Source: Candidatus Nanoarchaeia archaeon
GTDB taxonomy: Archaea; Nanobdellota; Nanobdellia; Woesearchaeales; JACPBV01
Direction: 5' to 3'
DNA length: 64,000 bases
NCBI GenBank assembly: GCA_028279655.1
Contig: JANQNH010000005.1
Coordinates: 144,962 to 208,961, forward strand
Part shown: positions 9,549 to 54,596 of the stretch, in pieces
Layout: each line of letters opens with the position of its first letter
How positions within the stretch are numbered: position 1 is the first letter of the stretch
Notes under the pieces: generated by a model
The model's input: the letters and a program-made list of their open reading frames with translations, nothing else
Told to the model about the DNA's origin: nothing
The model's database searches: none
Position numbers and translations under genes: made by a program

Positions 9549-10109
9549 CTATATAATCTGCCTAAGATACCCTACTATAGATTTGACTGCCATAGCTGCC
9601 CAATGTTCAGAATACCAGAACTTCTGAATTCTATTCTTATAGATCGTGAAGTCCCTCAGGTTCTCCATATCTATCCAATCACTCCCTGAAAATCTATCAT
9701 ACCATAACTCTTCAAAATAGTTTGCTTCCTCGTTATTTTCAGGGGTCTCTCCTATGCCATTGTATCTCCGTGATCCATCATAGGTAACAAGTTCTGAGTT
9801 TAACACATGATTGAGCACAACATGGCCTATCTCATGCCCCAAGGTCCTTAATCTCTTGTCAGGAGACAACTTAGAATTAAGAACGATAGCATATCCTCCA
9901 TTGATAAATATAGTAATTCCATCGACATCCTCTAGAATACCTGAATCATCATCCCTTATCCTGTAGATTCTGTTATCCCTTGCAAAGTCCTCGAATGTGT
10001 AGCTATCGCTAGTTTTCTTATAGATATCTGATATAATATTCTCTATACGCTGTTTTTTCTCTGCTAACATTTCAAGAGAACCATTTTTCCTAAGAGAATC
10101 AACATCCAC
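9549..10109 (-). CDS. ImmA/IrrE-like HEXXH zinc metallopeptidase
   Basis: LRTLGHEIGHVVLNH carries the HExxH motif in the context typical of the ImmA/IrrE family. The track start is GTG, and an alternative ATG lies at 10070. Confidence 0.5.
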   Translation of the reverse strand: MDVDSLRKNGSLEMLAEKKQRIENIISDIYKKTSDSYTFEDFARDNRIYRIRDDDSGILEDVDGITIFINGGYAIVLNSKLSPDKRLRTLGHEIGHVVLNHVLNSELVTYDGSRRYNGIGETPENNEEANYFEELWYDRFSGSDWIDMENLRDFTIYKNRIQKFWYSEHWAAMAVKSIVGYLRQII

Positions 10110-10946
10110 TTAAAAACCTGTCTTTTTGAAGACATCCATATAAAATCTGACTTTCTCAGGAAGATGCTTAGCCATCATAGCCTTTCTTTTATCATTCATT
10201 TGCTTTGATTCATAATACTTTCCTTTAGAAGGGTTAAATGTAGAGATCCACTTCTCTCTTTCATGCTGCATACCCATCTGCAGATACAATTCCTTAAGTT
10301 CATCAGATATTGGCTTTCTATGCCCAGCCTGCACATATATCCCTCCTTCTTTCATCCTTTCTCTTATCCCTTCTATGGATCGCTGAGATCTCTCCACTCC
10401 CCCAGAAGTTAGAGAAGAATTAGCGTAGATCAGATCAGCCCTATTCAACTCTAATTCACCAGGCTTTTCATGATTTGAAACATAGAAATCCACATTAGCT
10501 AATCCAAGCCTCTCCTTCCTCCTATTAGCCTGAGCTATCATGCTTCTGCTCTTATCATAACCTATAAAATCCACAGCTTCATCTTCATAAAGCTTTGCAA
10601 GAAAACAAAGATCCAATCCAGTCCCACATCCAGCATCAACAACCACTGATTGTGGTTTTTTATCAATCATCCTTGCCAGTTCCGGTAGAAAACTCATCCT
10701 ATAATCATAATCCAGAGGAAACCCCTGGGATAGGTCATGATAATAAGGCATATTTGGAAATCGGATTCTCCATATAAGACCTGTACTTATCAAACGCCTA
10801 AGCCCCCTGCCAAAAACACCTTTACCCTTAGCTACAAACCTGTCAACAGATTCCTTATCAGCTAATCTTTCTATCCCTAGCTCATTGAGATAATCCACCA
10901 GCTGCCTTCTAGCACTTCTAGGTTTATCTTTTCTAGGCTTATTCAT
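10110..10946 (-). CDS. Class I SAM-dependent methyltransferase
   Basis: VVVDAGCGTGLDLCFLA is motif I (DxGxGxG). Its stop abuts the next gene. Confidence 0.65.
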   Translation of the reverse strand: MNKPRKDKPRSARRQLVDYLNELGIERLADKESVDRFVAKGKGVFGRGLRRLISTGLIWRIRFPNMPYYHDLSQGFPLDYDYRMSFLPELARMIDKKPQSVVVDAGCGTGLDLCFLAKLYEDEAVDFIGYDKSRSMIAQANRRKERLGLANVDFYVSNHEKPGELELNRADLIYANSSLTSGGVERSQRSIEGIRERMKEGGIYVQAGHRKPISDELKELYLQMGMQHEREKWISTFNPSKGKYYESKQMNDKRKAMMAKHLPEKVRFYMDVFKKTGF

Positions 10947-13242: not shown

Positions 13243-14571
13243 TCATGTGCTGTCAAAATACTTCTCCAGTTCCCAACGAGTAACCTGTAATCTGTACTCA
13301 TCAAACTCAGCCTTCTTGGCAGCTATATATATCTCATATGTATGCTCCCCTAGAACACTCTTGATTACATCATCCTTCTTCAATTTCAAGACAGCCTGGC
13401 CCAGTGAAGCAGGAAGCTTCCCTATCTTTCTATCCTCCAGCATACTATCGTCAAACTTATACACATCTTCTTCTACAGGAGAAGGAGGCTCCATGTTGTT
13501 CTTTATACCATCAAGACCAGCCTTAAGCATTACAGCAAAAGCAAGATAAGGATTACAGGATGGATCAGGGCATCTTAATTCACATCTCGTTGCCTGCTCC
13601 TTTCCAGGGCTATATCTTGGTATCCTTATAAGAGCACTTCTATTAGTCTGCCCCCAACACACATATACAGGAGCCTCAAACCCAGGCACCAATCGTTTAT
13701 ATGAATTCACCTTTGGAGCGACAACAGCAGCCATAGCCTTTACATGAGACAACTGTCCTGCGATAAATCCTTTAGCCAGGGAACTCAACTTATACTTGTC
13801 CTTATCATCAAAAAAAGCATTCTTCCCATCCTTAAACAGGCTCTGATGGACATGCATCCCAGAGCCATTCTCACCATAGATCGGCTTAGGCATGAATGTA
13901 GCATACAACCCATGTGCCTGTGCTATAGATTTCACAACATGCTTGAATGTTATAGCCCTATCCGCCTGCAACAAAGCATCGCCATACTTAAAATCTATCT
14001 CGTGCTGTCCAGGAGCAACCTCATGGTGGGACATCTCAACCTCTAATCCCAAAGCCTGCAAGGCATTTATTATATCGTTCCTCACCTTTATTGCAAGGTC
14101 CTTTGGTGAAAAATCAAAATACCCTGCCCTGTCATGTGTTGTCGGTATCAGTTCTCCATTCTCCCTGGGTTTAAAAAGAAAGAACTCAAGCTCAGGCCCG
14201 ACGTTATACTCAAAGCCAAGATCAGCAGCTTCTTTCAGGACCTTTTTTAATATATACCTCGGATCACCTTCAAAGGGTTTTCCATCAGGCCTGAACACAT
14301 CACATATGAGCCTTGCGCTTGCTCCTTCTCCTGTTTCCCACGGCAGAACAGCATATGTTGAAGCATCAGGTTTAAGATACATATCTGATTCAGCTATCCT
14401 TGTAAATCCCTCTATAGAGCTACCGTCAAACCACGTACCTCTCTCTAAGCTTTCACCAAGCTTATCAACAGGTATTGTAACAGACTTAATCACACCATGC
14501 AGGTCTGTAAACTGCAATTGTACAAACTTAACTCCATCCTTCTCTACCCTTTCTAATAAATCTTCAGTCAT
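13243..14571 (-). CDS. glnA: Glutamine synthetase type I
   Basis: 442 aa. GS catalytic-domain and beta-grasp signatures present (e.g. GSGMHVHQS). SD-like AGGTGA lies 7 nt upstream of the ATG. Confidence 0.9.
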   Translation of the reverse strand: MTEDLLERVEKDGVKFVQLQFTDLHGVIKSVTIPVDKLGESLERGTWFDGSSIEGFTRIAESDMYLKPDASTYAVLPWETGEGASARLICDVFRPDGKPFEGDPRYILKKVLKEAADLGFEYNVGPELEFFLFKPRENGELIPTTHDRAGYFDFSPKDLAIKVRNDIINALQALGLEVEMSHHEVAPGQHEIDFKYGDALLQADRAITFKHVVKSIAQAHGLYATFMPKPIYGENGSGMHVHQSLFKDGKNAFFDDKDKYKLSSLAKGFIAGQLSHVKAMAAVVAPKVNSYKRLVPGFEAPVYVCWGQTNRSALIRIPRYSPGKEQATRCELRCPDPSCNPYLAFAVMLKAGLDGIKNNMEPPSPVEEDVYKFDDSMLEDRKIGKLPASLGQAVLKLKKDDVIKSVLGEHTYEIYIAAKKAEFDEYRLQVTRWELEKYFDST

Positions 14572-18456: not shown

Positions 18457-19698
18457 ATGGGGGAAATAAAAGAGAATACTCAAGAACCTGAACAAAAACA
18501 AGAAAATAAAACCAAGATAGATAAGATCCTAGAGAAAAAGTTATCCAGGAGAGATTTCTTAAAATACGGGTTGATAGGCCTTGGAGGGTTGGCAACATCC
18601 ATCTACGGCTATAAACATATCTCTGGAAGAAGCCCCTCATCTCTGCCAAAGATATTTCCTAACTCAGCTCCTGAAAGCTTATGGAGATGGTCAAAAAAAG
18701 CTCTTTATTATAAAAAGATCCAGAAAAACATCCTCTGCCAGTTATGTCCTCATGAATGCACCTTAGAGCCAGAAGACAGGGGCATCTGCAGAACCAGAGT
18801 GAATAAGGATGGAAAACTCTACACCATTGCTTATGGCAATCCCTGCTCAGTACATATAGACCCTATAGAAAAAAAGCCTTTGTTTCATTTTCTTCCGGAG
18901 TCCCAGATATTTTCAATAGCAACCGCAGGATGCAATCTGAGATGCCTAAACTGCCAGAATTGGACAATCTCTCAGTTCCAGCCTGAAGAGACCACCAATT
19001 ATGATCTGCCACCGGAAAAGGTAGTCCTTGCAGCTCAAAAATACAACTGCCAGTCAATAGCCTATACCTACTCTGAACCAATTATCTTCTATGAGTATAT
19101 GTTTGACACATCAAAGATAGCAAAAGCACAAGGGATAGTGAATGTTATGGTGACCGCAGGCTACATAAATGAAAAGCCTTTTAGGGATCTGTGCAAGGTG
19201 ATAGATGCAGCAAACATCGATCTTAAAGGGTTTGATGAAAAAGTGTATAACAGGCTAAATGGCGCTACCCTAAAGCCAGTATTAGATACCTTAAAGATAG
19301 CAAAAGAAGAAGGCATATGGTTTGAGATCACCAACCTTGTTGTGCCAACATGGTCAGATGATCCTGGCATGATCAGGGAGATGTCCAGATGGCTGTACAA
19401 GAACAATATGCAGGATTACCCCATACACTTCTCAAGATTCCATCCCCAGTACAAGATGACCCATCTTCCACCAACCCCAACACAAAGGCTCAAACAAGCA
19501 AGAGAGATAGCTATGGATGAAGGCATAAAATTCGTCTACATAGGGAATGTTCCTGGAACAGATGCAGAGAATACCTATTGCCCAAAATGCGGGAAGATAG
19601 TAATTGGCAGAAAAGGATACAAGATCACAGAAAATAATTTAAATAATGGATCATGTAAATCTTGTGGAGAAAAAATCCCAGGGGTGTGGAAACTATGA
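18457..19698 (+). CDS. amrS: AmmeMemoRadiSam system radical SAM enzyme with Tat signal peptide
   Basis: N-terminal SRRDFLKYGLIGLGGLATSIYG is a twin-arginine signal. The radical SAM motif is CNLRCLNC (Cx3Cx2C). Similar overall to the AmrS/PflA-like family. Confidence 0.8.
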   Translation: MGEIKENTQEPEQKQENKTKIDKILEKKLSRRDFLKYGLIGLGGLATSIYGYKHISGRSPSSLPKIFPNSAPESLWRWSKKALYYKKIQKNILCQLCPHECTLEPEDRGICRTRVNKDGKLYTIAYGNPCSVHIDPIEKKPLFHFLPESQIFSIATAGCNLRCLNCQNWTISQFQPEETTNYDLPPEKVVLAAQKYNCQSIAYTYSEPIIFYEYMFDTSKIAKAQGIVNVMVTAGYINEKPFRDLCKVIDAANIDLKGFDEKVYNRLNGATLKPVLDTLKIAKEEGIWFEITNLVVPTWSDDPGMIREMSRWLYKNNMQDYPIHFSRFHPQYKMTHLPPTPTQRLKQAREIAMDEGIKFVYIGNVPGTDAENTYCPKCGKIVIGRKGYKITENNLNNGSCKSCGEKIPGVWKL

Positions 19699-21194
19699 AA
19701 AAGACAACCAGACACCTAATACTATTCACAACAATAGCCATGATCTTCTTATTGGTACTTGCATACCATTCTAACAACAATGAAAACAGCAATGAAAACA
19801 AAAAAGAGAAGAAAGTAGTAAGACCTGAAGCAGTGGCAGGCTCCTGGTATCCAGGAGATAAGGAGACTCTCGATACAGAGGTAAGCAGATACCTTGATAA
19901 TGTTCCAAAGCTCAACCTAAACGGAACAATCAAGGCCATCATTGTGCCTCATGCAGGCTATAGGTTCTCTGGACAGATTGCAGCCATAGCATTCAAGCAG
20001 CTGGATGACATATACAATAAGGTTATCCTTCTTGGGCCATCCCACCATTACCCTTTAGAGCAAGCCTCTATTATGGAAGTAACTCATTATCAGACACCTT
20101 TAGGAGAGATAGAACTTTCAAATGAGATAGATGAGCTGATGAAAGAGGATATGATCTCTTCTGTTCCAGAAGCCCATAAAAAAGAGCATTCCCTGGAGCT
20201 GGAGCTGCCTTTTATGCAGAAAACACTCAGTGATTTTAAGCTAATCCCTATATTGGTAGGAAAGATCGATCCAGAGGAGTTCAAGCAGATACTCCTAAAA
20301 TATATAGATGACAAAACCCTTATAGTGATAAGCGTTGATCTCTCCCATTATCATAGTTATGAAGGGGCCCTTCAATTAGACGCTTATTCGATAGAAAGGA
20401 TCCTAGCAATAGACTCAGAAGGGATATTCAATGCAGAGATAGATGCACCATGGGCAGTCTCTACCCTACTTAAGATTGCAGATGAAAAATCATGGAAACC
20501 TTCCCTTCTTTTCTATGCAAATTCGGGGGATGTTAGTGGAGATAAGAAGAGCGTTGTTGGATACTCTGCCATCGCTTTTCTCGAAGAGCAGGAACACACA
20601 TTAGAAGAAGAACCCCTGACAAAAGAAGAGCAGAAACTTCTTCTTCAACTAGCCAGATACACAGCAGAACAGTACCTGGAAACCGGAAAGACCATAAATA
20701 TCGACAGCACAAAGCTCTCACCCTCTCTTAAGAAGGTCCAGGGCTGCTTTACCACATTCAACAAGAATCACAACCTGAGAGGATGTATTGGCCACATCCT
20801 GCCCAAGGAAGAGCTATATAGGTGCGTCATGGATAATGCAGTAAATGCCGCTGTGAATGATCAAAGGTTCCCAAAGGTTTCAAAAGAAGAGATGAAAGAT
20901 ATAGCCATAGAGATATCAGTTCTCACTGTCCCTCAAAAACTGGATTTCGATTCAGGAAAAGAGCTTTCAGATAAGCTTAGGCCCATGATCGATGGGGTTG
21001 TGCTAAAGCAGGGATTTAAGCAGTCCACCTATCTCCCCCAGGTATGGACAAACTTCAAGTCCAAGGATGAATTCTTGACAAGCCTTTGCAGGAAAGGAGG
21101 AATGCCCCTCAACTGCTGGCAGGACACCCAGACAGAGGTTTTTACATATCAGGCCTTTGTTTTTGAGGAAACTAACGTACAAACCACAGGCTGA
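19695..21194 (+). CDS. Fusion of AmmeMemoRadiSam system protein B (MEMO1-like) and AMMECR1 domain (AmrA), N-terminal membrane anchor
   Basis: ATG at 19695 overlaps the amrS stop (ATGA). The Memo-like part has SWYPG and IVPHAGYRFSG. The C-terminal AMMECR1 domain has LRGCIGH. A hydrophobic segment follows MKKTTRHLILFTTIAMIFLLVLA. Confidence 0.8.
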   Translation: MKKTTRHLILFTTIAMIFLLVLAYHSNNNENSNENKKEKKVVRPEAVAGSWYPGDKETLDTEVSRYLDNVPKLNLNGTIKAIIVPHAGYRFSGQIAAIAFKQLDDIYNKVILLGPSHHYPLEQASIMEVTHYQTPLGEIELSNEIDELMKEDMISSVPEAHKKEHSLELELPFMQKTLSDFKLIPILVGKIDPEEFKQILLKYIDDKTLIVISVDLSHYHSYEGALQLDAYSIERILAIDSEGIFNAEIDAPWAVSTLLKIADEKSWKPSLLFYANSGDVSGDKKSVVGYSAIAFLEEQEHTLEEEPLTKEEQKLLLQLARYTAEQYLETGKTINIDSTKLSPSLKKVQGCFTTFNKNHNLRGCIGHILPKEELYRCVMDNAVNAAVNDQRFPKVSKEEMKDIAIEISVLTVPQKLDFDSGKELSDKLRPMIDGVVLKQGFKQSTYLPQVWTNFKSKDEFLTSLCRKGGMPLNCWQDTQTEVFTYQAFVFEETNVQTTG

Positions 21195-22324: not shown

Positions 22325-22969
22325 ATGATGTTAGCTCTAAATAATGGTAATGGTAGGTGGATAGAACCAACTGATCCAAATACTATAGAAGAGATTGTGG
22401 AATCAGTTGTAAAAGCAGATGTTATTATATCAGATATAGACGGCACTGTAGCTCCAAATAATAAAATAGGAATATTATATTCTGAAATAGCTAGGAGAAA
22501 GCTTGCAGGCCATTCTTTAAGGTGGTTTGATAAGGGGGTTGGTTTTAGTAAATTTTGGTATACTAAGGAATATGCTAAAGGGAAAGCATTCCCAGGAGTT
22601 TTGGATTTTTACCAGGATTTGTCAAAATTAAACCCAGATCAAAAGAAGATAATGGTTAGTAGAAATGCTAGAATCGTATTAAATGCATATCAGCAAGCAT
22701 TGTGTTTCACTGATATCCTTCCAAGGGAGTTTGATAAAAAGGAAGCTGTTGATAAGATAATTGATATGTATCCCAACGCAAGAAATTTCGTAGTCTTTGG
22801 TAATGATTCATCAGATCAAGAGATGCTGGATCACCTTAGGGCTAAAAAAGATGAAAGATATAGTGTTAAAGGAATTTATGTAGCTAGTTCAAGACCTGCT
22901 ATCAATAAAGGTTTTGATGCCAACATTGGTAGACACTACGGTGCATTAAGAGATAAACTACCTATATAA
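22325..22969 (+). CDS. HAD-superfamily hydrolase
   Basis: ISDIDGT (DxDGT motif I) and a distal FGNDSSD motif. Confidence 0.55.
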   Translation: MMLALNNGNGRWIEPTDPNTIEEIVESVVKADVIISDIDGTVAPNNKIGILYSEIARRKLAGHSLRWFDKGVGFSKFWYTKEYAKGKAFPGVLDFYQDLSKLNPDQKKIMVSRNARIVLNAYQQALCFTDILPREFDKKEAVDKIIDMYPNARNFVVFGNDSSDQEMLDHLRAKKDERYSVKGIYVASSRPAINKGFDANIGRHYGALRDKLPI

Positions 22970-25159
22970 CGTTTTTGACTTAACAATCAACCCACCAATT
23001 AAATTCAAAATCCCGACTAAAAAACACACCTTAAATATGCCTATTAAGGGTATCAAAAGTGAACTGACGAGCAGAGCACCTATAGCAGCCCCGATAAGAT
23101 CAGCATTATAAAGTCTGCCTGCTGTTTCTCCTATCTTCCCTTTAAATGACAGTTTGGAGGCCAGGGGAAATTCCATCCCTACCAGTGCAGCGATCAAGAA
23201 AGTAAACAGCGGCATAATTAATCTTGATAAGAAGTAGACCAGTACCACATTTCCTGCTTTACTCAGAAAAATAAAGACAAAAGGAAGCATGATAGAGTAG
23301 AAGGATATAGAATACTCTATATTTACAAGCTCTTTCTTTCCCATATCCTCTAGCCTCCTGTTCATATAATAGGAACCAGTTGCAAGACCCATCATGAAAG
23401 CTGTTATTATTATAGCTATCTGATGGTAGGCATATCCATAAAGAACCTGAAATCCTATCAATATAACTACTTCAAGTGAAGATGCTGCAAAGCCAGAGCT
23501 AAAGACAGCAAATGATATGGCTTTTAACCTGCTTAGATAGAAGACAAGAAGACCTATCAAGGTAATAAAAAACAATGTGCTGTCAAGTCTAAAATGTCTG
23601 ACCCAATACAGAAGATGGTAATAATAGCTTATTGGGTTAAAGTCCTTATTTACCTCAGCACCAGGGTCCAGGGATTTCTTTACATAGTTTATTCTGTCAT
23701 TAGTCAATCTTCCTTTCAGGTAAAAACCATTGACATAGCTTGTTTCAATCCCCTTATCCTCAATCAAACCTGCAATATTGTAGCTCAAGCCTGATTCAGA
23801 GGCAATGAATATGTTCCTTTCACCAGGGATCACAATTACTTTACCAAAATGTTCAGACAATGAATTATAAAGCACAGAGTTTAGCTTACGAACCTCAGCA
23901 CCAAGGTAATTTACACCCCCGCTCATGCTTAAGGAGAATATCCCATTTTTCTTCAATATCCTCTTGATCTCTTTAAAAAATTCAACAGTATAGAACCTGT
24001 TTAGCTGTGCAGTGCTTGGATCAGGAAGATCCACTATTACCGCATCATACCTATCCTTAGTATTCCTTACAAATAACCTTCCATCCATATTGATAATCCT
24101 CACCCTTGGATCATCTAGATTCTTAGTATATCTTCTGCCAAGTTCAACAATCAATTGGTCCAGCTCAACATAATCCAAAGAAACATTATATTTCAGTATC
24201 TCATCAATAGTTCCTGAGACACCTCCGGAAATCAACAATACCCTGCTTGCATTCTCTACCTGTACCATAGCATAATGAACAGTCTCTTCATTTCTAATGA
24301 CATCCTCTGTAGTGAAAAGCGTAATACCATTCTCATAAAAATTATACTGATCAAGGGTCTTAGTTACAACAAGATTACCATAAGGCGTATCTCTCTGAAA
24401 AACCAATTCCTGGCCAATATACTGCCTTTCCCTGCTAACCTTATTCAAATCAAAGGAAAAGAATCCAGCAAGAACCACAAAAGCCAACAAGAAGATAGCA
24501 ACAACCATCATCTTTTTCTTAATAAAGAAAGCTAAAGCCATTGAAGCAATAATGTTAACTACAAAAAGAAAGAATACTATCTGAAACACATTAAGGAGAT
24601 ATACAAAAACAAAGCTGAATAGTATCCCCCCTAGTATATCGCCAATGCTATCCATGAAATAGACCTTTCCAATAGCAGAAGAATCCTTCTTCAGGGAATA
24701 AAGATGGCATGCCAATGTCAAGAGAAAACCCGATACAAGGCAGTATGGCATAAGTATGAACAGGGATGAAAAGAAGATCTCAACAATTCCAATCAGCTCC
24801 CCAGATAAGAATATGGTGTTTCTCAACTCCCTTATAACAATGATATGGAAGAAAGGAAGGACAGAGATAAGAAGCTGAGATATGATCAGCCAGGATATCT
24901 TTCCTTTTTTCATATACTTTCCAAGATATGCCCCTATCCCAGTTAGCAATAGCCAGTTTGCAAGTATAATTCCAAACACCAGCTCATTCCCATAGAACAC
25001 ACCAAAGAATTCTCGTATTGCAATAATCTGGGTAATTATAGATGATATCCCTAATGCAGTTATTGAAAAGAACAATAACCGTTGTCTCTTGCCTTTTATA
25101 ACACCCATAAAAAAAGAGAATTCAGATATATATTTAATTATTTCCTCCAAACATTCCAA
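22958..25159 (-). CDS. Polytopic membrane protein fused to spermidine-synthase-like (aminopropyltransferase-fold) domain
   Basis: 733 aa. Central LLISGGVSGT...VDLPDP region resembles the spermine/spermidine synthase fold. It is flanked by many TM helices. Confidence 0.6.
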   Translation of the reverse strand: MECLEEIIKYISEFSFFMGVIKGKRQRLLFFSITALGISSIITQIIAIREFFGVFYGNELVFGIILANWLLLTGIGAYLGKYMKKGKISWLIISQLLISVLPFFHIIVIRELRNTIFLSGELIGIVEIFFSSLFILMPYCLVSGFLLTLACHLYSLKKDSSAIGKVYFMDSIGDILGGILFSFVFVYLLNVFQIVFFLFVVNIIASMALAFFIKKKMMVVAIFLLAFVVLAGFFSFDLNKVSRERQYIGQELVFQRDTPYGNLVVTKTLDQYNFYENGITLFTTEDVIRNEETVHYAMVQVENASRVLLISGGVSGTIDEILKYNVSLDYVELDQLIVELGRRYTKNLDDPRVRIINMDGRLFVRNTKDRYDAVIVDLPDPSTAQLNRFYTVEFFKEIKRILKKNGIFSLSMSGGVNYLGAEVRKLNSVLYNSLSEHFGKVIVIPGERNIFIASESGLSYNIAGLIEDKGIETSYVNGFYLKGRLTNDRINYVKKSLDPGAEVNKDFNPISYYYHLLYWVRHFRLDSTLFFITLIGLLVFYLSRLKAISFAVFSSGFAASSLEVVILIGFQVLYGYAYHQIAIIITAFMMGLATGSYYMNRRLEDMGKKELVNIEYSISFYSIMLPFVFIFLSKAGNVVLVYFLSRLIMPLFTFLIAALVGMEFPLASKLSFKGKIGETAGRLYNADLIGAAIGALLVSSLLIPLIGIFKVCFLVGILNLIGGLIVKSKTLYR

Positions 25160-25281: not shown

Positions 25282-25662
25282 CTATCCCCTTTTTTCAAGA
25301 ACCCTTGCACTGTTCTCAAAATTTACAAACGTAACACTATCTCCTTCATTCAATTCCTCTAATAAAGAACCATCTATATCAGCATCAACAGTCTCAAAAC
25401 TCACATTATCCATCACCTGCACCTTATCAGACAGCTTTGAAATTACCTGCCCTTCCTTTCTTATGATATCCAATACCTCAACATTATCATGGTGGTTTAG
25501 GTTAAGGCTCTTCTCTCCTTTGGAAAACAGGCCCTGTACAAACAGTTTTGTCTTAGAATGCGAATGCGTGCCATAAGCAACTACCTCTTTTCTTATGACC
25601 TTCATTATCTCATTTCCTATCTTCACATAGTTTCCGGTCTTAAGCTCTTTTGCTTCAGTCAT
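25282..25662 (-). CDS. Translation initiation factor 5A (aIF5A) with Thr at the hypusine position
   Basis: Aligns ungapped with archaeal aIF5A (LKxGxY...G-[K]-HG.AK...QVMDNVSFETVDADID). The GKHGSAK hypusine loop reads GTHSHSK here. Confidence 0.7.
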   Translation of the reverse strand: MTEAKELKTGNYVKIGNEIMKVIRKEVVAYGTHSHSKTKLFVQGLFSKGEKSLNLNHHDNVEVLDIIRKEGQVISKLSDKVQVMDNVSFETVDADIDGSLLEELNEGDSVTFVNFENSARVLEKRG

Positions 25663-25894
25663 CTTCCTCCCCCAAAAACCTATAATTCTTATTGTTTATA
25701 AATTTTTTGTGTTAGATCCCCTCTATCGACAAATTAGTTATATATTTTATATAATTATCTCAAAAAAAGCACAAGGTTTATAAATAGATTTGTGCCCCCA
25801 AAGTAATGAATTATTACATATTAGTAGATATCATTAGAATGATTCCCAAGGACAGGGGTGGTTTTGGGAGAATATATCAATTTTGGTGTAGGAT

Positions 25895-27643
25895 ATGATA
25901 GGAGCTAAAAGAGAAAAAAGATTAAAGCCAGCACTATTATTAGTAGGAAGAAAAGCAAGAAATATTGCTACCCAGCTACGAAAACAAAGATATCTAACAT
26001 ACGTTTGCGATTCCCCGAATATGGCCTCCAGTGAAAATAACCCTACAGCTACCTTGGATAAGATACTCCAGAGAGACCATCCGGATATTGTGGTTTTGAC
26101 TGACAGAAAGGAAAAACTTAAAAGACAAGAAGCCCTTTATCGTTATATCAAAGAAAGCACCAAGACAAACAATTCTAGTGGTATAAGGGTGATAGTTCCA
26201 GAACAACTGACACCAACTATAAAAGAAGTTGATTCTGATGATAGCTACCTCCCAAATCCAGCAAACCTTGTTCAACTTGTCCGAAATGCAGGTGTTGTAT
26301 GGGCAAGAATGCTTAAATCAAGAGATATTCCAGATAGGGAGACAACACCTAAGATTTTTGTTGCTACAGGACCAACATGTGCAGGTAAGACAACAGTGAG
26401 TGACAGAGTTGCCAAGTTATATGAGAATGGAAGGCTTGTAATCAAGCATAGAGCAGGCATACTAAGACCTACTGATAGCAATGGGGTTGATTACATCGTA
26501 AGACCCGTATCCAGAATTCGAAAGGATATATCATTAGGAGTACTGCTAGGATATAGACACTATGGAAGAGAGTACGGAATACCTGTTATTGATATAAATA
26601 ATATTCGAAGCAGAGGAGAAGACGCAATGGTTGTTGTCGCAGAGACTGATGCAGTTGCAAAGATAATAAATCATTTCGGAGAAGATATTGTAAGGCCCAT
26701 CTATCTATATACCACAGCAGACGCACTAGAGACCCGCCTCTATAAAGAATTGGGACATAGAAGGTCTCCAGATGAGATAAAGCAAAGAATGAGAGAGATC
26801 AGAGAGCAGGAACTTGAATCGTTCTATGCGCATCCAGAGATGTTTGCATGGTGGGTCCCTAACCACAACCCATACTGCCCTGAAGATAGCAGAGACTTTG
26901 CAAAAGCCAGACAGAAATATTGGGATGATAGGGAGATAGCAAGATGTGTAAATTGGGTTGATACCATTATGAGATGGGAATATAATCATGATTGCGGTCA
27001 GATCCCTCAACATGAATGTGAGAGGCAATATGTAGATCATTTGGTCACTAGCTTATTTGGATACAATTCTGATGAATTGATTGAAAGGCTTAATGGAGGT
27101 AAAGATGTACACCTTGTTTCAAATGGACAATTGACCGATTATGTGAGATGGCTGCGTGAAGAACAGAACCAGCGTCATGTAGATACTGATCATGTTAGAC
27201 AAATTATAGACAAAAAGGTATTGCATGCATCTGACGACTCTACACTTACACTATTCTTTGAACCTTATATGGATATAAATAAGGACTCAGGAACGTGGTC
27301 AGACAAGGAAATTATTTTAGGTTATATTGAGGCCCTTGCTGGACCATCTGTCCACCGGAACAATATGCTGACGAAACTTGGTTCTTCTGCCTTTGGTAAT
27401 TGTGGATTGTCCAATGATGGAAGTTTTGTATTAGTAGATGATGGACTATTCTATGCCTTAAGCTTGCCCCCTTCATCTGTAAAGCAGGCTGGAAAAAGAA
27501 AAAGGTTAGCCATATCATTCCTTAGAGAACCAGTTAGGGATCCTGCAAGATTACAAAGCAGGACCTTCACACCTGAAGAAAGAGAGCATATGAGACATGC
27601 ACAGTATTCACTGATGAGTGCTCTAGCAATGCATAGATACTAA
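25895..27643 (+). CDS. Large P-loop (kinase-like) domain protein of unknown function
   Basis: Walker A is ATGPTCAGKTTV. 582 aa with a R/H/W/D-rich composition unlike its neighbours. Confidence 0.45.
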   Translation: MIGAKREKRLKPALLLVGRKARNIATQLRKQRYLTYVCDSPNMASSENNPTATLDKILQRDHPDIVVLTDRKEKLKRQEALYRYIKESTKTNNSSGIRVIVPEQLTPTIKEVDSDDSYLPNPANLVQLVRNAGVVWARMLKSRDIPDRETTPKIFVATGPTCAGKTTVSDRVAKLYENGRLVIKHRAGILRPTDSNGVDYIVRPVSRIRKDISLGVLLGYRHYGREYGIPVIDINNIRSRGEDAMVVVAETDAVAKIINHFGEDIVRPIYLYTTADALETRLYKELGHRRSPDEIKQRMREIREQELESFYAHPEMFAWWVPNHNPYCPEDSRDFAKARQKYWDDREIARCVNWVDTIMRWEYNHDCGQIPQHECERQYVDHLVTSLFGYNSDELIERLNGGKDVHLVSNGQLTDYVRWLREEQNQRHVDTDHVRQIIDKKVLHASDDSTLTLFFEPYMDINKDSGTWSDKEIILGYIEALAGPSVHRNNMLTKLGSSAFGNCGLSNDGSFVLVDDGLFYALSLPPSSVKQAGKRKRLAISFLREPVRDPARLQSRTFTPEEREHMRHAQYSLMSALAMHRY

Positions 27644-28593
27644 TACTCCAGCCCCCATCTCGCTTCTGTCAGATCAAGTATTATCTCCAGAGATGATCTC
27701 ATATCACTAAGGAACAAGAGCTCATCCTTAGAAAGTTTCTTTGACAATTTCCTAAGGTTTTTTATTACATTATCCCTGTTCTCGCTTAGGTCTGTAATCG
27801 TATCCACATTGAATTTATAGAATAACTGGTAATAGAGCTCCAGGGATTTCTGGATCATCTCTAGCAGAAGAGCGCTTTCCTTGGAAAGCTTAAATCTATA
27901 TTTTAGGTAATCCCTGCTCGCATACTTCAGTATATCTACTATCTTGTCCAGGTTAGAGATTATATGGTACAAAGCGAACATCTTCCTGTACTCAGGATAC
28001 CCTATCTTGTTCAATGTCCTTAGGCAATAGCTGATGAACTTAGTGATATTGTCATGCTTCTCTTCAGTAGACTCCACAAGGACAGAATTACCTGTCCTCA
28101 CCCCTTCAACCAGGTCCTTGTACATGTCAATGATCAGTATGAATACTCTTCTATAGACATTCTCAAATTCCTTAGAAGTGCATTCCTGGAGGCTTTTGAT
28201 TGTACATGATTTTTCACCCTGCTGTACTATCTCAAAACCAATCAGGCGATTGACAGTATAGTTTACTATGGAGATTACCTTAACATCCTTGCTCAGCCTT
28301 AGATGAGGTATCTGCTCTTCATTAAACTTTATCAGGACCTCATCATAACCCAACCTATATAGGCTTTGGATACAGTACAGTATAGATGTCCTGTCCAGTC
28401 CGGTAATATCGACCTCAATTTTCTTAAGCTCAAGGCTTCTCTCAGTGCTGATTACGATCTTATCCCCTTGTTCCAGGAGATTGAGTTCATCCCCTTTCCT
28501 GATCCCATGCTGTAAAGCCCATTTCCTAGGTAAGGAGATCAGCTGAGTACTATCTGCTATCTGTATAACCCTTCTCTTCATTATAAAATTCAC
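27640..28593 (-). CDS. AbrB/SpoVT-type DNA-binding domain fused to PhoU-like helical domain (archaeal phosphate-uptake-regulator-like)
   Basis: N-terminus VIQIADSTQLISLPRKWALQHGIRKGDELNL is a swapped-hairpin AbrB motif, followed by about 260 aa of helical repeats. Confidence 0.5.
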   Translation of the reverse strand: MNFIMKRRVIQIADSTQLISLPRKWALQHGIRKGDELNLLEQGDKIVISTERSLELKKIEVDITGLDRTSILYCIQSLYRLGYDEVLIKFNEEQIPHLRLSKDVKVISIVNYTVNRLIGFEIVQQGEKSCTIKSLQECTSKEFENVYRRVFILIIDMYKDLVEGVRTGNSVLVESTEEKHDNITKFISYCLRTLNKIGYPEYRKMFALYHIISNLDKIVDILKYASRDYLKYRFKLSKESALLLEMIQKSLELYYQLFYKFNVDTITDLSENRDNVIKNLRKLSKKLSKDELLFLSDMRSSLEIILDLTEARWGLEY

Positions 28594-46554: not shown

Positions 46555-48339
46555 ATGAAAAAAGAGGAGGTCAAAGCAGATTATTTTTTTGAAGTAAGTT
46601 GGGAGATATGCCATCAGGTTGGAGGCATATACACAGTGATTAAGTCCAAAGCAGGCAAGCTATATCAGCTATATAAGGAAAAATATTTCTTGATAGGTCC
46701 GTATTATGCCAAAGAAGCAGCTATCAAGTTTGAAGCTAGGAAGCCTCCAAAAGAGATAGAAAGGATATTCAGCGAACTTAAGAAAAACAAGATAGAATGT
46801 TATTTCGGTAAATGGAACATTGAAGGAGTAAAAGTAAATACCATATTGATAGATTTCTCTAAATATATGATCAAGGCAAATGAGATAAAGAGCAGGCTGT
46901 GGAAGGATTTCAAGATAGATTCCTTTAATTCAGGTGAAGAGTTTAACACATGGGTTACATGGGGAACTACAGCAGGTATGCTGTTAGAAGGCCTCAGAAA
47001 AAAACTTAAGGGAAAGATAGTTGCTCAGTTTCACGAGTATCTGACAGGAGCTGCCCTGCTGCACCTAAAGAAGAACAAGGTCAAGATTGCTACTGTCTTC
47101 ACAACGCATGCAACCTATCTAGGCAGGACGCTGGCAAGTGCAGGAATACCTCTTTATGAGGTCATAAAGAAGATCAAGCCAAAGGAGAATGCATATAAGT
47201 ATAAGATTCCAGACAGATATTCTTTGGAGAAAGCAGCAGCACTAAACGCAAACGTCTTCACAACAGTGTCCGATATAACTGCACTTGAAGCAACCAATCT
47301 TGTAGGCAGAAGACCAGATATCGTGCTCCCAAACGGTCTTGATATATCCAAATTCCCAGCATTGGAACAAAGGGCTATCAGCCATTCAAAGTTCAAGACA
47401 CAGATACTTGACTTTGCAAAGGTTTTCTTCTTTCCTTATTACAGGTTTGACCTGGATAATACCCTCCTATACTTCATAGCAGGCAGATATGAGTTCAAGA
47501 ATAAGGGGGTTGACATATTCATTAAGTCATTGGGACAACTGAACAAAAAGTTGATAATGGAAAAGAGCGATAGGAACATCATAGCGTTGATATGGGTGCC
47601 TTCTAAAGTAGAGGGGATAGACAAGACCTTATTGCAGAATAAGATCAATTATGAGGGTGTGGAGAACTTCATGGACCGCTCCCTTGATGATATAAAGGCG
47701 AACATAATAGACTCCATTGTCAACCAGAAGCTCCCTACAACAAGAGAACTATTCAGCGGAACTTTCTACTATCAGATGAAGAAGAAGATGATGGAATTCA
47801 AGAAAAAAGGAAAGCCGCTTGTAGTAACCCATAACCTTGCTGACAAAAATGACATCATAATTAAAGCCTTAAAAAAAGCCGGCCTTAACAATTCCATAAG
47901 GGATAAGGTAAAGGTCATATACTATCCTGTATACCTTACAGGGGCTGACGGACTGATAGATCTCAGCTATTACGATGCAATTATGGGGTGTCACTTAGGT
48001 ATCTTCCCTTCTTATTATGAACCATGGGGATATACCCCTTTAGAGACCGGCGCATTAGGCGTCTCCGCCTTAACAACAGATCTTAGTGGATTTGGAAAGT
48101 ATCTTCTGAAGAAGCATAAGAAATGCAAAGGTATCTGGGTCCTGAAAAGGCAGAACACAAAGGAAGAACTATCCATAGCAAGACTAACAAGTATTATGTA
48201 TGATTATGCAAAGTTAACCCAGAGGCAGAGGATACAAAAGAAATTGGAGGCAAAGAGCGTATCCAATCTGGCTGATTGGGAAAATATGGTTAACTATTAC
48301 ATCAAGGCACATAATATGGCCTTAAAAAAGGTAAGATAG
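46555..48339 (+). CDS. GT3-family (eukaryote-type) glycogen synthase-like glycosyltransferase
   Basis: N-terminal FFEVSWEICHQVGGIYTVIKSKA matches the GT3 Glycogen_syn signature (FEVAWEVANKVGGIYTV). 594 aa. Confidence 0.6.
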   Translation: MKKEEVKADYFFEVSWEICHQVGGIYTVIKSKAGKLYQLYKEKYFLIGPYYAKEAAIKFEARKPPKEIERIFSELKKNKIECYFGKWNIEGVKVNTILIDFSKYMIKANEIKSRLWKDFKIDSFNSGEEFNTWVTWGTTAGMLLEGLRKKLKGKIVAQFHEYLTGAALLHLKKNKVKIATVFTTHATYLGRTLASAGIPLYEVIKKIKPKENAYKYKIPDRYSLEKAAALNANVFTTVSDITALEATNLVGRRPDIVLPNGLDISKFPALEQRAISHSKFKTQILDFAKVFFFPYYRFDLDNTLLYFIAGRYEFKNKGVDIFIKSLGQLNKKLIMEKSDRNIIALIWVPSKVEGIDKTLLQNKINYEGVENFMDRSLDDIKANIIDSIVNQKLPTTRELFSGTFYYQMKKKMMEFKKKGKPLVVTHNLADKNDIIIKALKKAGLNNSIRDKVKVIYYPVYLTGADGLIDLSYYDAIMGCHLGIFPSYYEPWGYTPLETGALGVSALTTDLSGFGKYLLKKHKKCKGIWVLKRQNTKEELSIARLTSIMYDYAKLTQRQRIQKKLEAKSVSNLADWENMVNYYIKAHNMALKKVR

Positions 48340-52874: not shown

Positions 52875-54596
52875 GTGAAACAGATAAAACCAAAAGCAGA
52901 TGTTCTTATTGAAGTATCTTATGAGATAGTTGCAAAGCTAGGAGGGATACACACAGTAATAAAGACAAAAGCCCCTTTCATGAAAGATTACTACAAGGAT
53001 AACTATATTGTAATAGGGATATACACAAAAAAGGACGCAAGAAAGAAATTCAAGAGAAAAGAGCCGAATAAAGAGCTTAAGAACCTTTTCCAAAAGCTAA
53101 AGAAAGAAAAAATTAATTGCCATTATGGTATATGGAAAGCAAAATCAAGCCCAAAAGCGATACTCATAGACATCTCAAAGCTAAAAAGGGACAGGGCCAC
53201 TAAGAATGAGATATATAAGGATTACTGGATCGACCTCTCGCCAAGAAGGCTGAGCAAGCCAAAACTATATTCTGATGCCCTGATATGGAGCTTCGCAACC
53301 GGAAAGCTGCTCTCTGAGATGGTTAAATTACGACAGTTTAAGAAGAAAAAAGTAGTGGTTAATATCCACGAATATATGAGTGGGTTAACCTTATTATACC
53401 TAAGAAAGCACAAGACAAACATCCCCATAGTGTTTACCACTCATGCGACAGTCCTTGGCAGGGCAGTTACTTTTGGAGGGGTTAATCTTCCAAAAGATAT
53501 GATAATCTATAAGAAAAAAGACAAGGCACAGTACAAGAAGGTTATAGATTCTTATAGGTATAGGGTAGGTCAGATAATATACGACAGGCACCTTTACGAG
53601 AAGGCTTGCGCAAAGAAAGCCGACGTCTTTACAACAGTTTCTGAAACTCTATCCAAGGAGGCAGCATTCGTCCTAGACAAACCGGCAGACATCATTACCC
53701 CTAATGGGTTGGATATGGTAACCCCTCCATCTATCGAAGAGCAGCTTGCAATAAACTACAGGGCAAAAAAGAAAGTTAGTAAATTTCTTGAGTCTTATTT
53801 CCATAAGTTTTACCAAATAAAGACTGATAACTCTATTTTTTTCTACACAGCAGGAAGATATGAGATCATTACAAAAGGATATGATCTTCTGATAGAATCC
53901 CTGGGCAAGCTTAATCTAAGGTTAAAGAAAGAAAGATGTAAAAACCAAGTATTCGTTTTTCTCTTTATCATGACCCAGAAAAAAAGGAAAGTCACCGATG
54001 AGGTTCTAGAGATTGTAAACTCAAAATCCACAAAATTAACTGCAAAAAATCCACCTAACTGTCTCTTCAAAGGAAAACACGATATGATCCACTTCCTTCT
54101 TGAAAAGAACAAGCTTCTTAATAGACGCTGTGATAAGGTAAAGGTTCTTTACTATCCAGCCCCTGTAAAAAGAAAAGATAAGCTATTATCAATGCACTAC
54201 AAAGAAGCAATATCAGCAATGGATCTTGGAATTTTCCCTTCTTTGTATGAACCATGGGGATATACACCTTTAGAGACAGCAGCCATGGGCACTTTAGCTA
54301 TCACAACAGATATAGCTGGATTCGGTAAATTCATCCAGAAAAGAACAGATCAAAGAGGAACCAAAGGAATAGCTGTCTTAACAACCAAAGCACAAACCAA
54401 GGATCAAATGGCACAACGACTTTCAAACATGATGCATGAGATAGTTTCTATGCCTAAAGAAAGAAGACTTGAAAAAAGGATAGAAGCAAACAAGTTATCA
54501 GAAGTGGCCAATTGGGATGACTTCTCTAAGGAATACATAAAAGCACACAACCTAGCTATTGAAAAGCATAAAAGCAATAAAAGAGAAAAAAGGTAA
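52875..54596 (+). CDS. GT3-family glycogen synthase-like glycosyltransferase, second paralog
   Basis: VLIEVSYEIVAKLGGIHTVIKTKA N-terminal signature. C-terminal YEPWGYTPLE is shared with 46555..48339. Confidence 0.6.
   Translation: MKQIKPKADVLIEVSYEIVAKLGGIHTVIKTKAPFMKDYYKDNYIVIGIYTKKDARKKFKRKEPNKELKNLFQKLKKEKINCHYGIWKAKSSPKAILIDISKLKRDRATKNEIYKDYWIDLSPRRLSKPKLYSDALIWSFATGKLLSEMVKLRQFKKKKVVVNIHEYMSGLTLLYLRKHKTNIPIVFTTHATVLGRAVTFGGVNLPKDMIIYKKKDKAQYKKVIDSYRYRVGQIIYDRHLYEKACAKKADVFTTVSETLSKEAAFVLDKPADIITPNGLDMVTPPSIEEQLAINYRAKKKVSKFLESYFHKFYQIKTDNSIFFYTAGRYEIITKGYDLLIESLGKLNLRLKKERCKNQVFVFLFIMTQKKRKVTDEVLEIVNSKSTKLTAKNPPNCLFKGKHDMIHFLLEKNKLLNRRCDKVKVLYYPAPVKRKDKLLSMHYKEAISAMDLGIFPSLYEPWGYTPLETAAMGTLAITTDIAGFGKFIQKRTDQRGTKGIAVLTTKAQTKDQMAQRLSNMMHEIVSMPKERRLEKRIEANKLSEVANWDDFSKEYIKAHNLAIEKHKSNKREKR

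Follow-up and report, generated by a model that had tools for sequence, protein, structure and literature searches.

IF5A/EF-P belongs to the few translation factors common to all cells, and the archaeal and eukaryotic IF5A proteins are believed to require a single modified lysine for their activity. The locus considered here raises the question of what the presence of an archaeal IF5A-like gene signifies whose loop carries a threonine in place of this lysine; a preliminary description of the gene had taken it to imply loss of the deoxyhypusine synthase (DHS) pathway or else a different modification or mechanism. The gene is situated on the minus strand at 25282..25662 of the 64-kb stretch of Candidatus Nanoarchaeia DNA that was analysed (hereafter the window), opens with an ATG start codon and encodes a protein of 126 aa, beginning with MTEAKELKTGNYVKIGNEIMKVIRKEVVAYGTHSHSKTKLF..., with a predicted two-domain IF5A fold. 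It represents a lysine-less aIF5A paralog, termed T-type in the following. Upstream of the gene, and on the same strand, a putative Shine-Dalgarno-like GGGGGAGG read from the sequence (25666..25673) precedes the ATG by 3 nt, while a TATA-box-like TTTATAAA (25695..25702) and a further TATAAA (25746..25751) are candidate promoter elements by resemblance to the consensus only.

The T-type protein scores below the curated thresholds of all IF5A models considered. The NCBIfam IF-5A models NF003076 (E=2.4e-21, 75.7 bits, cut-off 138) and TIGR00037 (E=1.8e-12, 47.2 bits, cut-off 75.45) yield sub-threshold matches, and no Pfam IF5A domain (PF21485 and PF01287, with cut-offs of 27.1 and 24.2 bits, respectively) is detected in the window protein at E<0.01. 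The family members P0085, P0121, P0142 and P0153 likewise fall below the curated IF5A thresholds, whereas the canonical aIF5A of the related genome MP5_5_87 attains 61.7 bits on PF21485 and thus exceeds the threshold. Moreover, the window protein does not qualify as a bacterial EF-P, as NF001810 and TIGR00038 give 30.3 bits (cut-off 161) and 29.3 bits (cut-off 185.8), and the match to the EF-P model is limited to profile positions 1-116 of about 185, devoid of domain III. Because T-type proteins reach none of the TIGR00037, NF003076 or Pfam cut-offs, they are annotated as "hypothetical protein", which is the NCBI label of the relatives, or loosely as "EF-P/IF5A".

Structural comparison nevertheless places the protein within the IF5A family. 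Its AlphaFold2 model, with a mean pLDDT of 91.6, is all-beta with 11 elements, among them strands 18-30 and 35-44, which form a hairpin with residues 31-34 at its tip. The best Foldseek matches of the model are archaeal aIF5A structures (E=1e-11 to 1e-9, TM 0.62-0.71; for 1bkb, E=1e-11 and TM 0.69). As modelled, the window protein has the IF5A fold, i.e., an N-terminal SH3/KOW-like barrel followed by a C-terminal OB fold.

The identity of the residue at the hypusine position is decisive for the interpretation of the locus. A profile built from 64 family members matches the structures 1iz6 (P. horikoshii), 8put_E and 1bkb with E=3e-19 to 1e-15 (HMMER), and the alignment is free of gaps from residue 3 through the QVMD..ET..DA block, the loop included, which bears out the ungapped correspondence with archaeal aIF5A that had been proposed initially. 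In this alignment, 'ayGThshsK' is placed on 'spGKHGSAK' or 'ktGKHGSAK', so that Thr32 (codon at 25567..25569, minus strand) occupies the column of the hypusine lysine, and a MAFFT alignment with 118 canonical Woesearchaeota aIF5As assigns it to the same column. Accordingly, the substitution of threonine for the hypusine lysine, which the preliminary description had read from a single sequence, holds against many aIF5A orthologs and is moreover invariant in the family. A gapped alignment with Lys37 as the hypusine site had been named as the alternative and was rejected, since Lys37 pairs with the second lysine of G-K-H-G-x-A-K in every alignment. The codons of loop residues 31-37, G-T-H-S-H-S-K, extend over 25552..25572 (minus strand) and are the counterpart of the hypusine loop G-K-H-G-H-A-K of canonical Woesearchaeota aIF5A. 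With regard to the consensus sequences, tSKSGKHGHAKvR of the canonical and vayGTHsHSKtK of the paralogous proteins, G, H, H and K are kept, while K is changed to T, G to S and A to S, the first of these being the sole radical conserved change. Residues G10, G31, H33, H35, K37, Q72, M84, D85, E90 and T91 are invariant in both families. Threonine lacks an epsilon-amino group, which renders the canonical (deoxy)hypusine reaction impossible at residue 32. Since the lysine at the hypusine site is replaced by a conserved threonine, T-type proteins cannot receive (deoxy)hypusine at the canonical site.

The T-type gene of the window is one of many. A search of 5.8 billion proteins returned 181 clusters at 90% identity, the source names of which comprise Woesearchaeota or Nanoarchaeota and no others; relatives were further found in 311 stretches from GTDB species genomes and at least 255 times in JGI metagenomes. 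By the provenance of these sequences, the family is confined to Woesearchaeota/Nanoarchaeota (DPANN). A viral origin of the gene was considered and dismissed, as no family member was found in the viral contigs of IMG/VR. The motif GTH[SC]H[ST]K is present in 120/120 sequences among the matches listed, and the loop GTHxHxK in 157/167 fetched loci. In an alignment of 64 diverse members, which reaches down to 52% identity to the window protein, G10, K25, E26, G31, T32, H33, H35, K37, Q82, M84, D85 and T91 are invariant. Given the invariance of the loop residues in these 64 members and the recurrence of GTHxHxK among the fetched loci, the threonine is, on comparative grounds, neither a one-off nor a sequencing error. 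Comparison of the window gene with its relatives yielded a dN of 0.07-0.26 at saturated dS and a dN/dS of 0.02-0.13; judged by this substitution pattern, T-type is a functional gene under strong purifying constraint.

When 1.84 billion representatives were searched exhaustively with HMMER, further branches of the family emerged, in which the tip is S, R or K, as in the loops S-S-H-S-G-T-K, S-R-H-T-H-T-K and S-K-H-S-H-S-K, or in which part or all of the loop is missing. Canonical PGKHGxAK proteins rank only below these variant branches. Proteins with a variant tip or with a shortened or deleted loop include P0137, P0141-P0143, P0148, P0149, P0153, P0154, P0158, P0166, P0189, P0220 and P0269, and the sister-branch protein P0149 originates from a Woesearchaeota MAG. 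As regards the provenance of individual records, many 'binchicken' TPA MAG records that carry T-type (L013, L015, L017, L021, L025 and others) are titled 'uncultured Methanosarcinales archaeon', and a T-type gene is also found in L060, titled 'uncultured Gammaproteobacteria bacterium'; the organism names of these records look like placeholders or mislabels.

Whether T-type genes replace the canonical factor or accompany it can be read from related genomes. In L038 (contig JBBSVT010000041.1), T-type at 10001-10375 and a canonical aIF5A (...VEISKPGKHGHSKVRISAVG...), truncated by the edge of the locus, are about 9.7 kb apart on one contig. In MP5_5_87 (GCA_019323195.1), T-type is located on JAHWHQ010000033.1 (L010; MBW2974528) and the canonical gene on JAHWHQ010000065.1 (MBW2975112), and in YT1_182 (GCA_019322485.1) the two are found on JAHWIK010000025.1 (MBW2980747) and JAHWIK010000021.1 (MBW2980543), respectively, the accessions of each genome belonging to one accession block. 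In Yap2000.bin4.8, the T-type gene (L012) is accompanied by the canonical aIF5A block ...TQTSRPGKHGHAKVRLSAVG... in the marker alignment of Huang et al. 2021 (PMC8421398), and the same alignment contains the canonical block ...TQVSRPGKHGHAKVRLTAVG... of MP5_5_87 (source data of Fig. 5a). Among the approximately 39 rows of this alignment covered here, GKHG occurs in about 36 and GTHSH in none. The canonical loop reads S[KR]xGKHGHAK in the four genomes with both copies. A binning artefact is argued against by the same-contig case L038 together with the CheckM contamination of 1-4% for these MAGs. Searches with canonical proteins returned more than 1000 proteins for P0167, the closest representative of the L038 copy, and more than 3500 for the MP5_5_87 copy, with many of the matches carrying PF21485/PF01287.

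The aIF2-gamma encoded in the window shares 82% identity with its MP5_5_87 counterpart and 75% with the one from Yap2000.bin4.8, which assigns the window organism to the same group (subgroup J of PMC8421398), with MP5_5_87 as its closest available relative. By extension from these relatives, the window's own genome would be expected to contain a canonical copy, and the canonical aIF5A P0436 may be this copy. A second canonical aIF5A had been stated in advance as the observation that would overturn the initial interpretation, and it is present in every related genome examined (n=4). From comparison of these genomes, T-type is a paralog and not the organism's ortholog of aIF5A. Hence, of the two parts of the earlier claim, that an IF5A of this kind cannot be hypusinated and that DHS has therefore been lost, the former stands insofar as no (deoxy)hypusine can be formed at Thr32, whereas the latter does not follow: the related genomes keep a lysine-bearing aIF5A, and T-type consequently does not imply loss of hypusination. 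The other option named at the outset, a different mechanism, may still apply to the paralog itself.

In a neighbour-joining tree, the Woesearchaeota canonical copies are monophyletic in 99/100 replicates, the paralog family is set apart from all canonical aIF5As in 73/100, and a sister position of the family to the Woesearchaeota canonical clade is recovered in 0/100. Built on 128 columns with a simple distance model, this topology would indicate that the family arose by an ancient duplication or was acquired, and that it then diverged rapidly.

The gene neighbourhoods of the two copies differ as well. Canonical aIF5A resides in a conserved context of histone, aIF5A, a 53-aa L40e-like protein and an M50 protease. 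This arrangement is seen in the canonical loci L090, L191 and L194, which encode a histone-fold protein, aIF5A, the 53-aa zinc-ribbon L40e-like protein and an M50 site-2 protease, with eRF1, L37ae and prefoldin upstream in 2/3 of them. T-type does not occupy this conserved single-copy position, as the lysine-bearing copy holds the site between the histone, L40e-like and M50 genes. Genes that recur near T-type encode a pseudouridine synthase, RNase HII or a transglutaminase-like protein; none of the three occurs in more than about 20% of the loci. The pseudouridine synthase (S4 + PseudoU_synth_2) follows about 14 nt 3' of T-type on the same strand in 33/157 loci, and RNase HII is encoded downstream in 30/157; T-type, pseudouridine synthase and RNase HII possibly constitute an operon (L004-L006, L050 and 30 other loci). 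Taken with caution, this context hints that some members of the family may have a role connected with RNA or the ribosome. Across the 157 loci, no modifying enzyme, such as a glycosyltransferase, a kinase or a radical-SAM protein, is conserved beside T-type.

Two neighbours in the window itself deserve separate mention. Directly downstream of T-type and a small membrane ORF, the gene at 22958..25159 (minus strand) encodes a protein of 733 aa that combines a polytopic membrane domain with a spermidine/spermine-synthase domain (PF01564; NCBIfam fused MFS/spermidine synthase). This adjacency is found in the window, L001/L003 and L093 only, the gene being 8 kb off in L149, and the spermidine-synthase-like protein was rejected as a functional partner because its adjacency is limited to the close relatives of the window. 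On the other side, a 582-aa ORF (25895..27643, plus strand) resembles guanylate-kinase-like P-loop proteins only weakly (NCBIfam E~4e-11, well under the cut-off), has no Pfam match and lacks a counterpart in any of the more than 160 related loci; it has the appearance of a lineage-specific insertion between an AbrB/PhoU-like gene (27640..28593) and T-type.

Searches for the modifying enzyme and for additional aIF5A genes near T-type have to be read against the size of the sequence covered. With human, haloarchaeal and Nostoc DHS as tblastn queries, no DHS was found in the 64-kb window or in the 1.89 Mb flanking T-type genes. The window contains no second aIF5A, and canonical aIF5A occurs a single time, in L038, in the approximately 1.9 Mb of T-type flanks. 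A single-copy gene in genomes of roughly 1 Mb is expected by chance once or twice in 1.89 Mb, and the single occurrence thus fits a randomly placed single-copy gene. With respect to DHS itself, the gene-gain tables for Woesearchaeota in PMC8421398 list a 'dys' orthogroup (PF01916/TIGR00321/K00809), which constitutes the only positive sign of DHS for Woesearchaeota. In plasmid and viral collections, DHS-like genes are solely of haloarchaeal, cyanobacterial, Sphingomonas-plasmid or phage origin; they comprise annotated DHS genes on haloarchaeal megaplasmids and on Nostoc, Trichormus and Sphingomonas plasmids (H1-H39), as well as DHS-like proteins with 26-30% identity to human DHS on 18 viral contigs of IMG/VR (L173-L190).

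The reading that we favour, and hold to be likely as a whole, is that T-type is an unhypusinatable aIF5A paralog that exists alongside the canonical copy and probably serves as a hypusine-independent accessory factor. T-type would probably dock near the ribosomal E site and the peptidyl-tRNA, as aIF5A and EF-P do, and its influence on the peptidyl-transferase centre would be changed or diminished; docking of the aIF5A kind without the long cationic side chain is proposed because the invariant residues shared by both families coincide while K is changed to T in the loop. Both the binding to the ribosome, which we infer from the predicted fold and from residue conservation, and the presumed absence of another modification are parts of this reading. 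T-type might relieve stalls at motifs other than those served by the canonical factor, or stand in when spermidine or hypusination becomes limiting. The sister branches with a shortened or deleted loop suggest that contact with the peptidyl-transferase centre is perhaps not what selection maintains.

Canonical aIF5A (NF003076/TIGR00037; PF21485 + PF01287; 1iz6, 1bkb, 2eif, 8put) shares the two-domain fold, the length and the loop length with T-type. T-type differs from it in the threonine that takes the place of the hypusine lysine, the sub-threshold scores, the separate clade, the other genomic context, its coexistence with the canonical gene and an identity of about 23-37% to canonical copies. 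The favoured analogy for an accessory role is bacterial EfpL (YeiP; PMC11611912; PDB 8s8u) beside EF-P, which it complements in bacteria. Like T-type, EfpL is a diverged second copy that co-occurs with the canonical modified factor, does not carry a modified lysine at its loop tip and was long annotated without a function. However, EfpL comprises three domains and a loop extended by 2 residues with an unmodified Arg at the tip (PMC11611912), whereas in T-type there are two domains, the loop is not extended and Thr stands at the tip. The two have independent origins, and the likeness therefore concerns the logic and not family membership; in the Foldseek comparison with the window protein, the EfpL structure 8s8u ranks 47th. 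A further parallel is provided by the actinobacterial PGKGP-type EF-P and the EF-P subfamilies with N, Q, M, S or G at the tip, whose activity, established or presumed, does not require a long modified side chain at the tip. These proteins are, however, the sole EF-P of their bacteria, whereas T-type is an extra archaeal copy, and the PGKGP-type EF-P keeps the lysine that T-type has exchanged for Thr.

Several other explanations of the gene have to be weighed against the favoured one. We give next to no credence to T-type being a decaying duplicate or a mis-called ORF: although the scores under the curated family thresholds and the annotation of the relatives as hypothetical proteins by NCBI would be expected in that case, the ORF is intact in more than 160 loci, 12 columns are invariant in 64 sequences down to 52% identity, dN/dS is at most 0.13 with saturated dS, the fold is predicted with confidence and a putative ribosome-binding site is placed 3 nt upstream. 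That T-type is the organism's sole aIF5A, with the DHS/hypusine pathway lost or bypassed, would agree with the reduced genomes of DPANN archaea and with the fact that, L038 excepted, neither the 64-kb window nor the 1.89 Mb of flanks contains a second aIF5A or a DHS. This proposition is nonetheless very improbable, since a canonical lysine-bearing aIF5A is encoded in four related T-type genomes, including the closest relative MP5_5_87, the canonical Woesearchaeota copy with its loop S[KR]xGKHGHAK is strongly conserved, one canonical copy in approximately 1.9 Mb of flanks is what a randomly placed single-copy gene would give, and a DHS orthogroup is listed for Woesearchaeota in PMC8421398.

The remaining alternatives accept the coexistence of both copies and concern the mode of action. 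A different modification of the loop tip, with T32 O-glycosylated or phosphorylated or with H33 or H35 modified, might take the place of hypusine; the invariance of these three residues is what a modification site would show, and the tip chemistry of bacterial EF-P is known to be swappable (lysylation, rhamnosylation or none). Yet no modifying enzyme is kept beside the gene across 157 loci, and H33 and H35 are, like K37, equally invariant in canonical aIF5A, so that their conservation needs no new cause, which makes this alternative improbable. Some, albeit low, likelihood is left for a T-type protein that no longer acts at the peptidyl-transferase centre and instead functions as an E-site regulator, as a pseudo-substrate decoy of DHS or as a non-translational RNA binder. 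The short and uncharged tip residue, the sister branches that dispense with the loop but keep the remaining protein, and the retention of the G-x-H-x-H-x-K scaffold with which the loop enters DHS are compatible with such roles, and non-translational RNA-related activities of aIF5A have been proposed (PMC9599864). A conserved link to DHS or polyamine genes is, however, missing, the spermidine-synthase-like neighbour being restricted to close relatives of the window.

The favoured reading, a hypusine-independent accessory paralog next to a canonical aIF5A, can be extended to the proposal that two IF5A systems operate in parallel in Woesearchaeota and related Nanoarchaeota, namely hypusinated aIF5A and a ribosome-acting paralog with a threonine loop, which would either be dedicated to distinct stalls or sustain translation while spermidine from the host, and with it hypusination, is in short supply. 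We put this extension forward tentatively, as possible rather than probable. If it were true, archaea would for the first time be seen to possess an equivalent of the EF-P/EfpL pair of bacteria, and the paralog would be a natural exception to an IF5A loop tip that is always lysine.

In the literature searched, we found neither an archaeal paralog of IF5A nor an IF5A loop with a tip other than lysine described, nor anything linking hypusine, DHS or aIF5A with DPANN lineages, and neither the supplements of DPANN papers nor a 2026 Nanobdellota preprint held a relevant entry. In eukaryotes and archaea, according to a 2024 study of EfpL (PMC11611912), the residue at the tip is "restricted to lysine". 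What is new about the locus is an undescribed and widespread family of lysine-less IF5A paralogs in DPANN; a loss of hypusination is unsupported. The T-type family shows the IF5A scaffold reused without hypusine in archaea too and offers a natural system in which to ask what the loop does besides carrying hypusine. Moreover, it carries a caution for annotation, as a T-type gene seen alone can lead to the false conclusion that hypusination has been lost in a DPANN genome.

Beyond the T-type gene, the window encodes an AmmeMemoRadiSam-type cluster at 18457..21194 (plus strand), consisting of a radical SAM protein and a fused Memo-AMMECR1 protein, two glycogen-synthase (PF05693) genes at 46555..48339 and 52875..54596 (both plus strand), a glutamine synthetase at 13243..14571 (minus strand), a malate/lactate dehydrogenase and a class I fumarase. 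For a DPANN archaeon, the metabolism represented in the window is unusually rich, and it agrees with Woesearchaeota 'subgroup J'.
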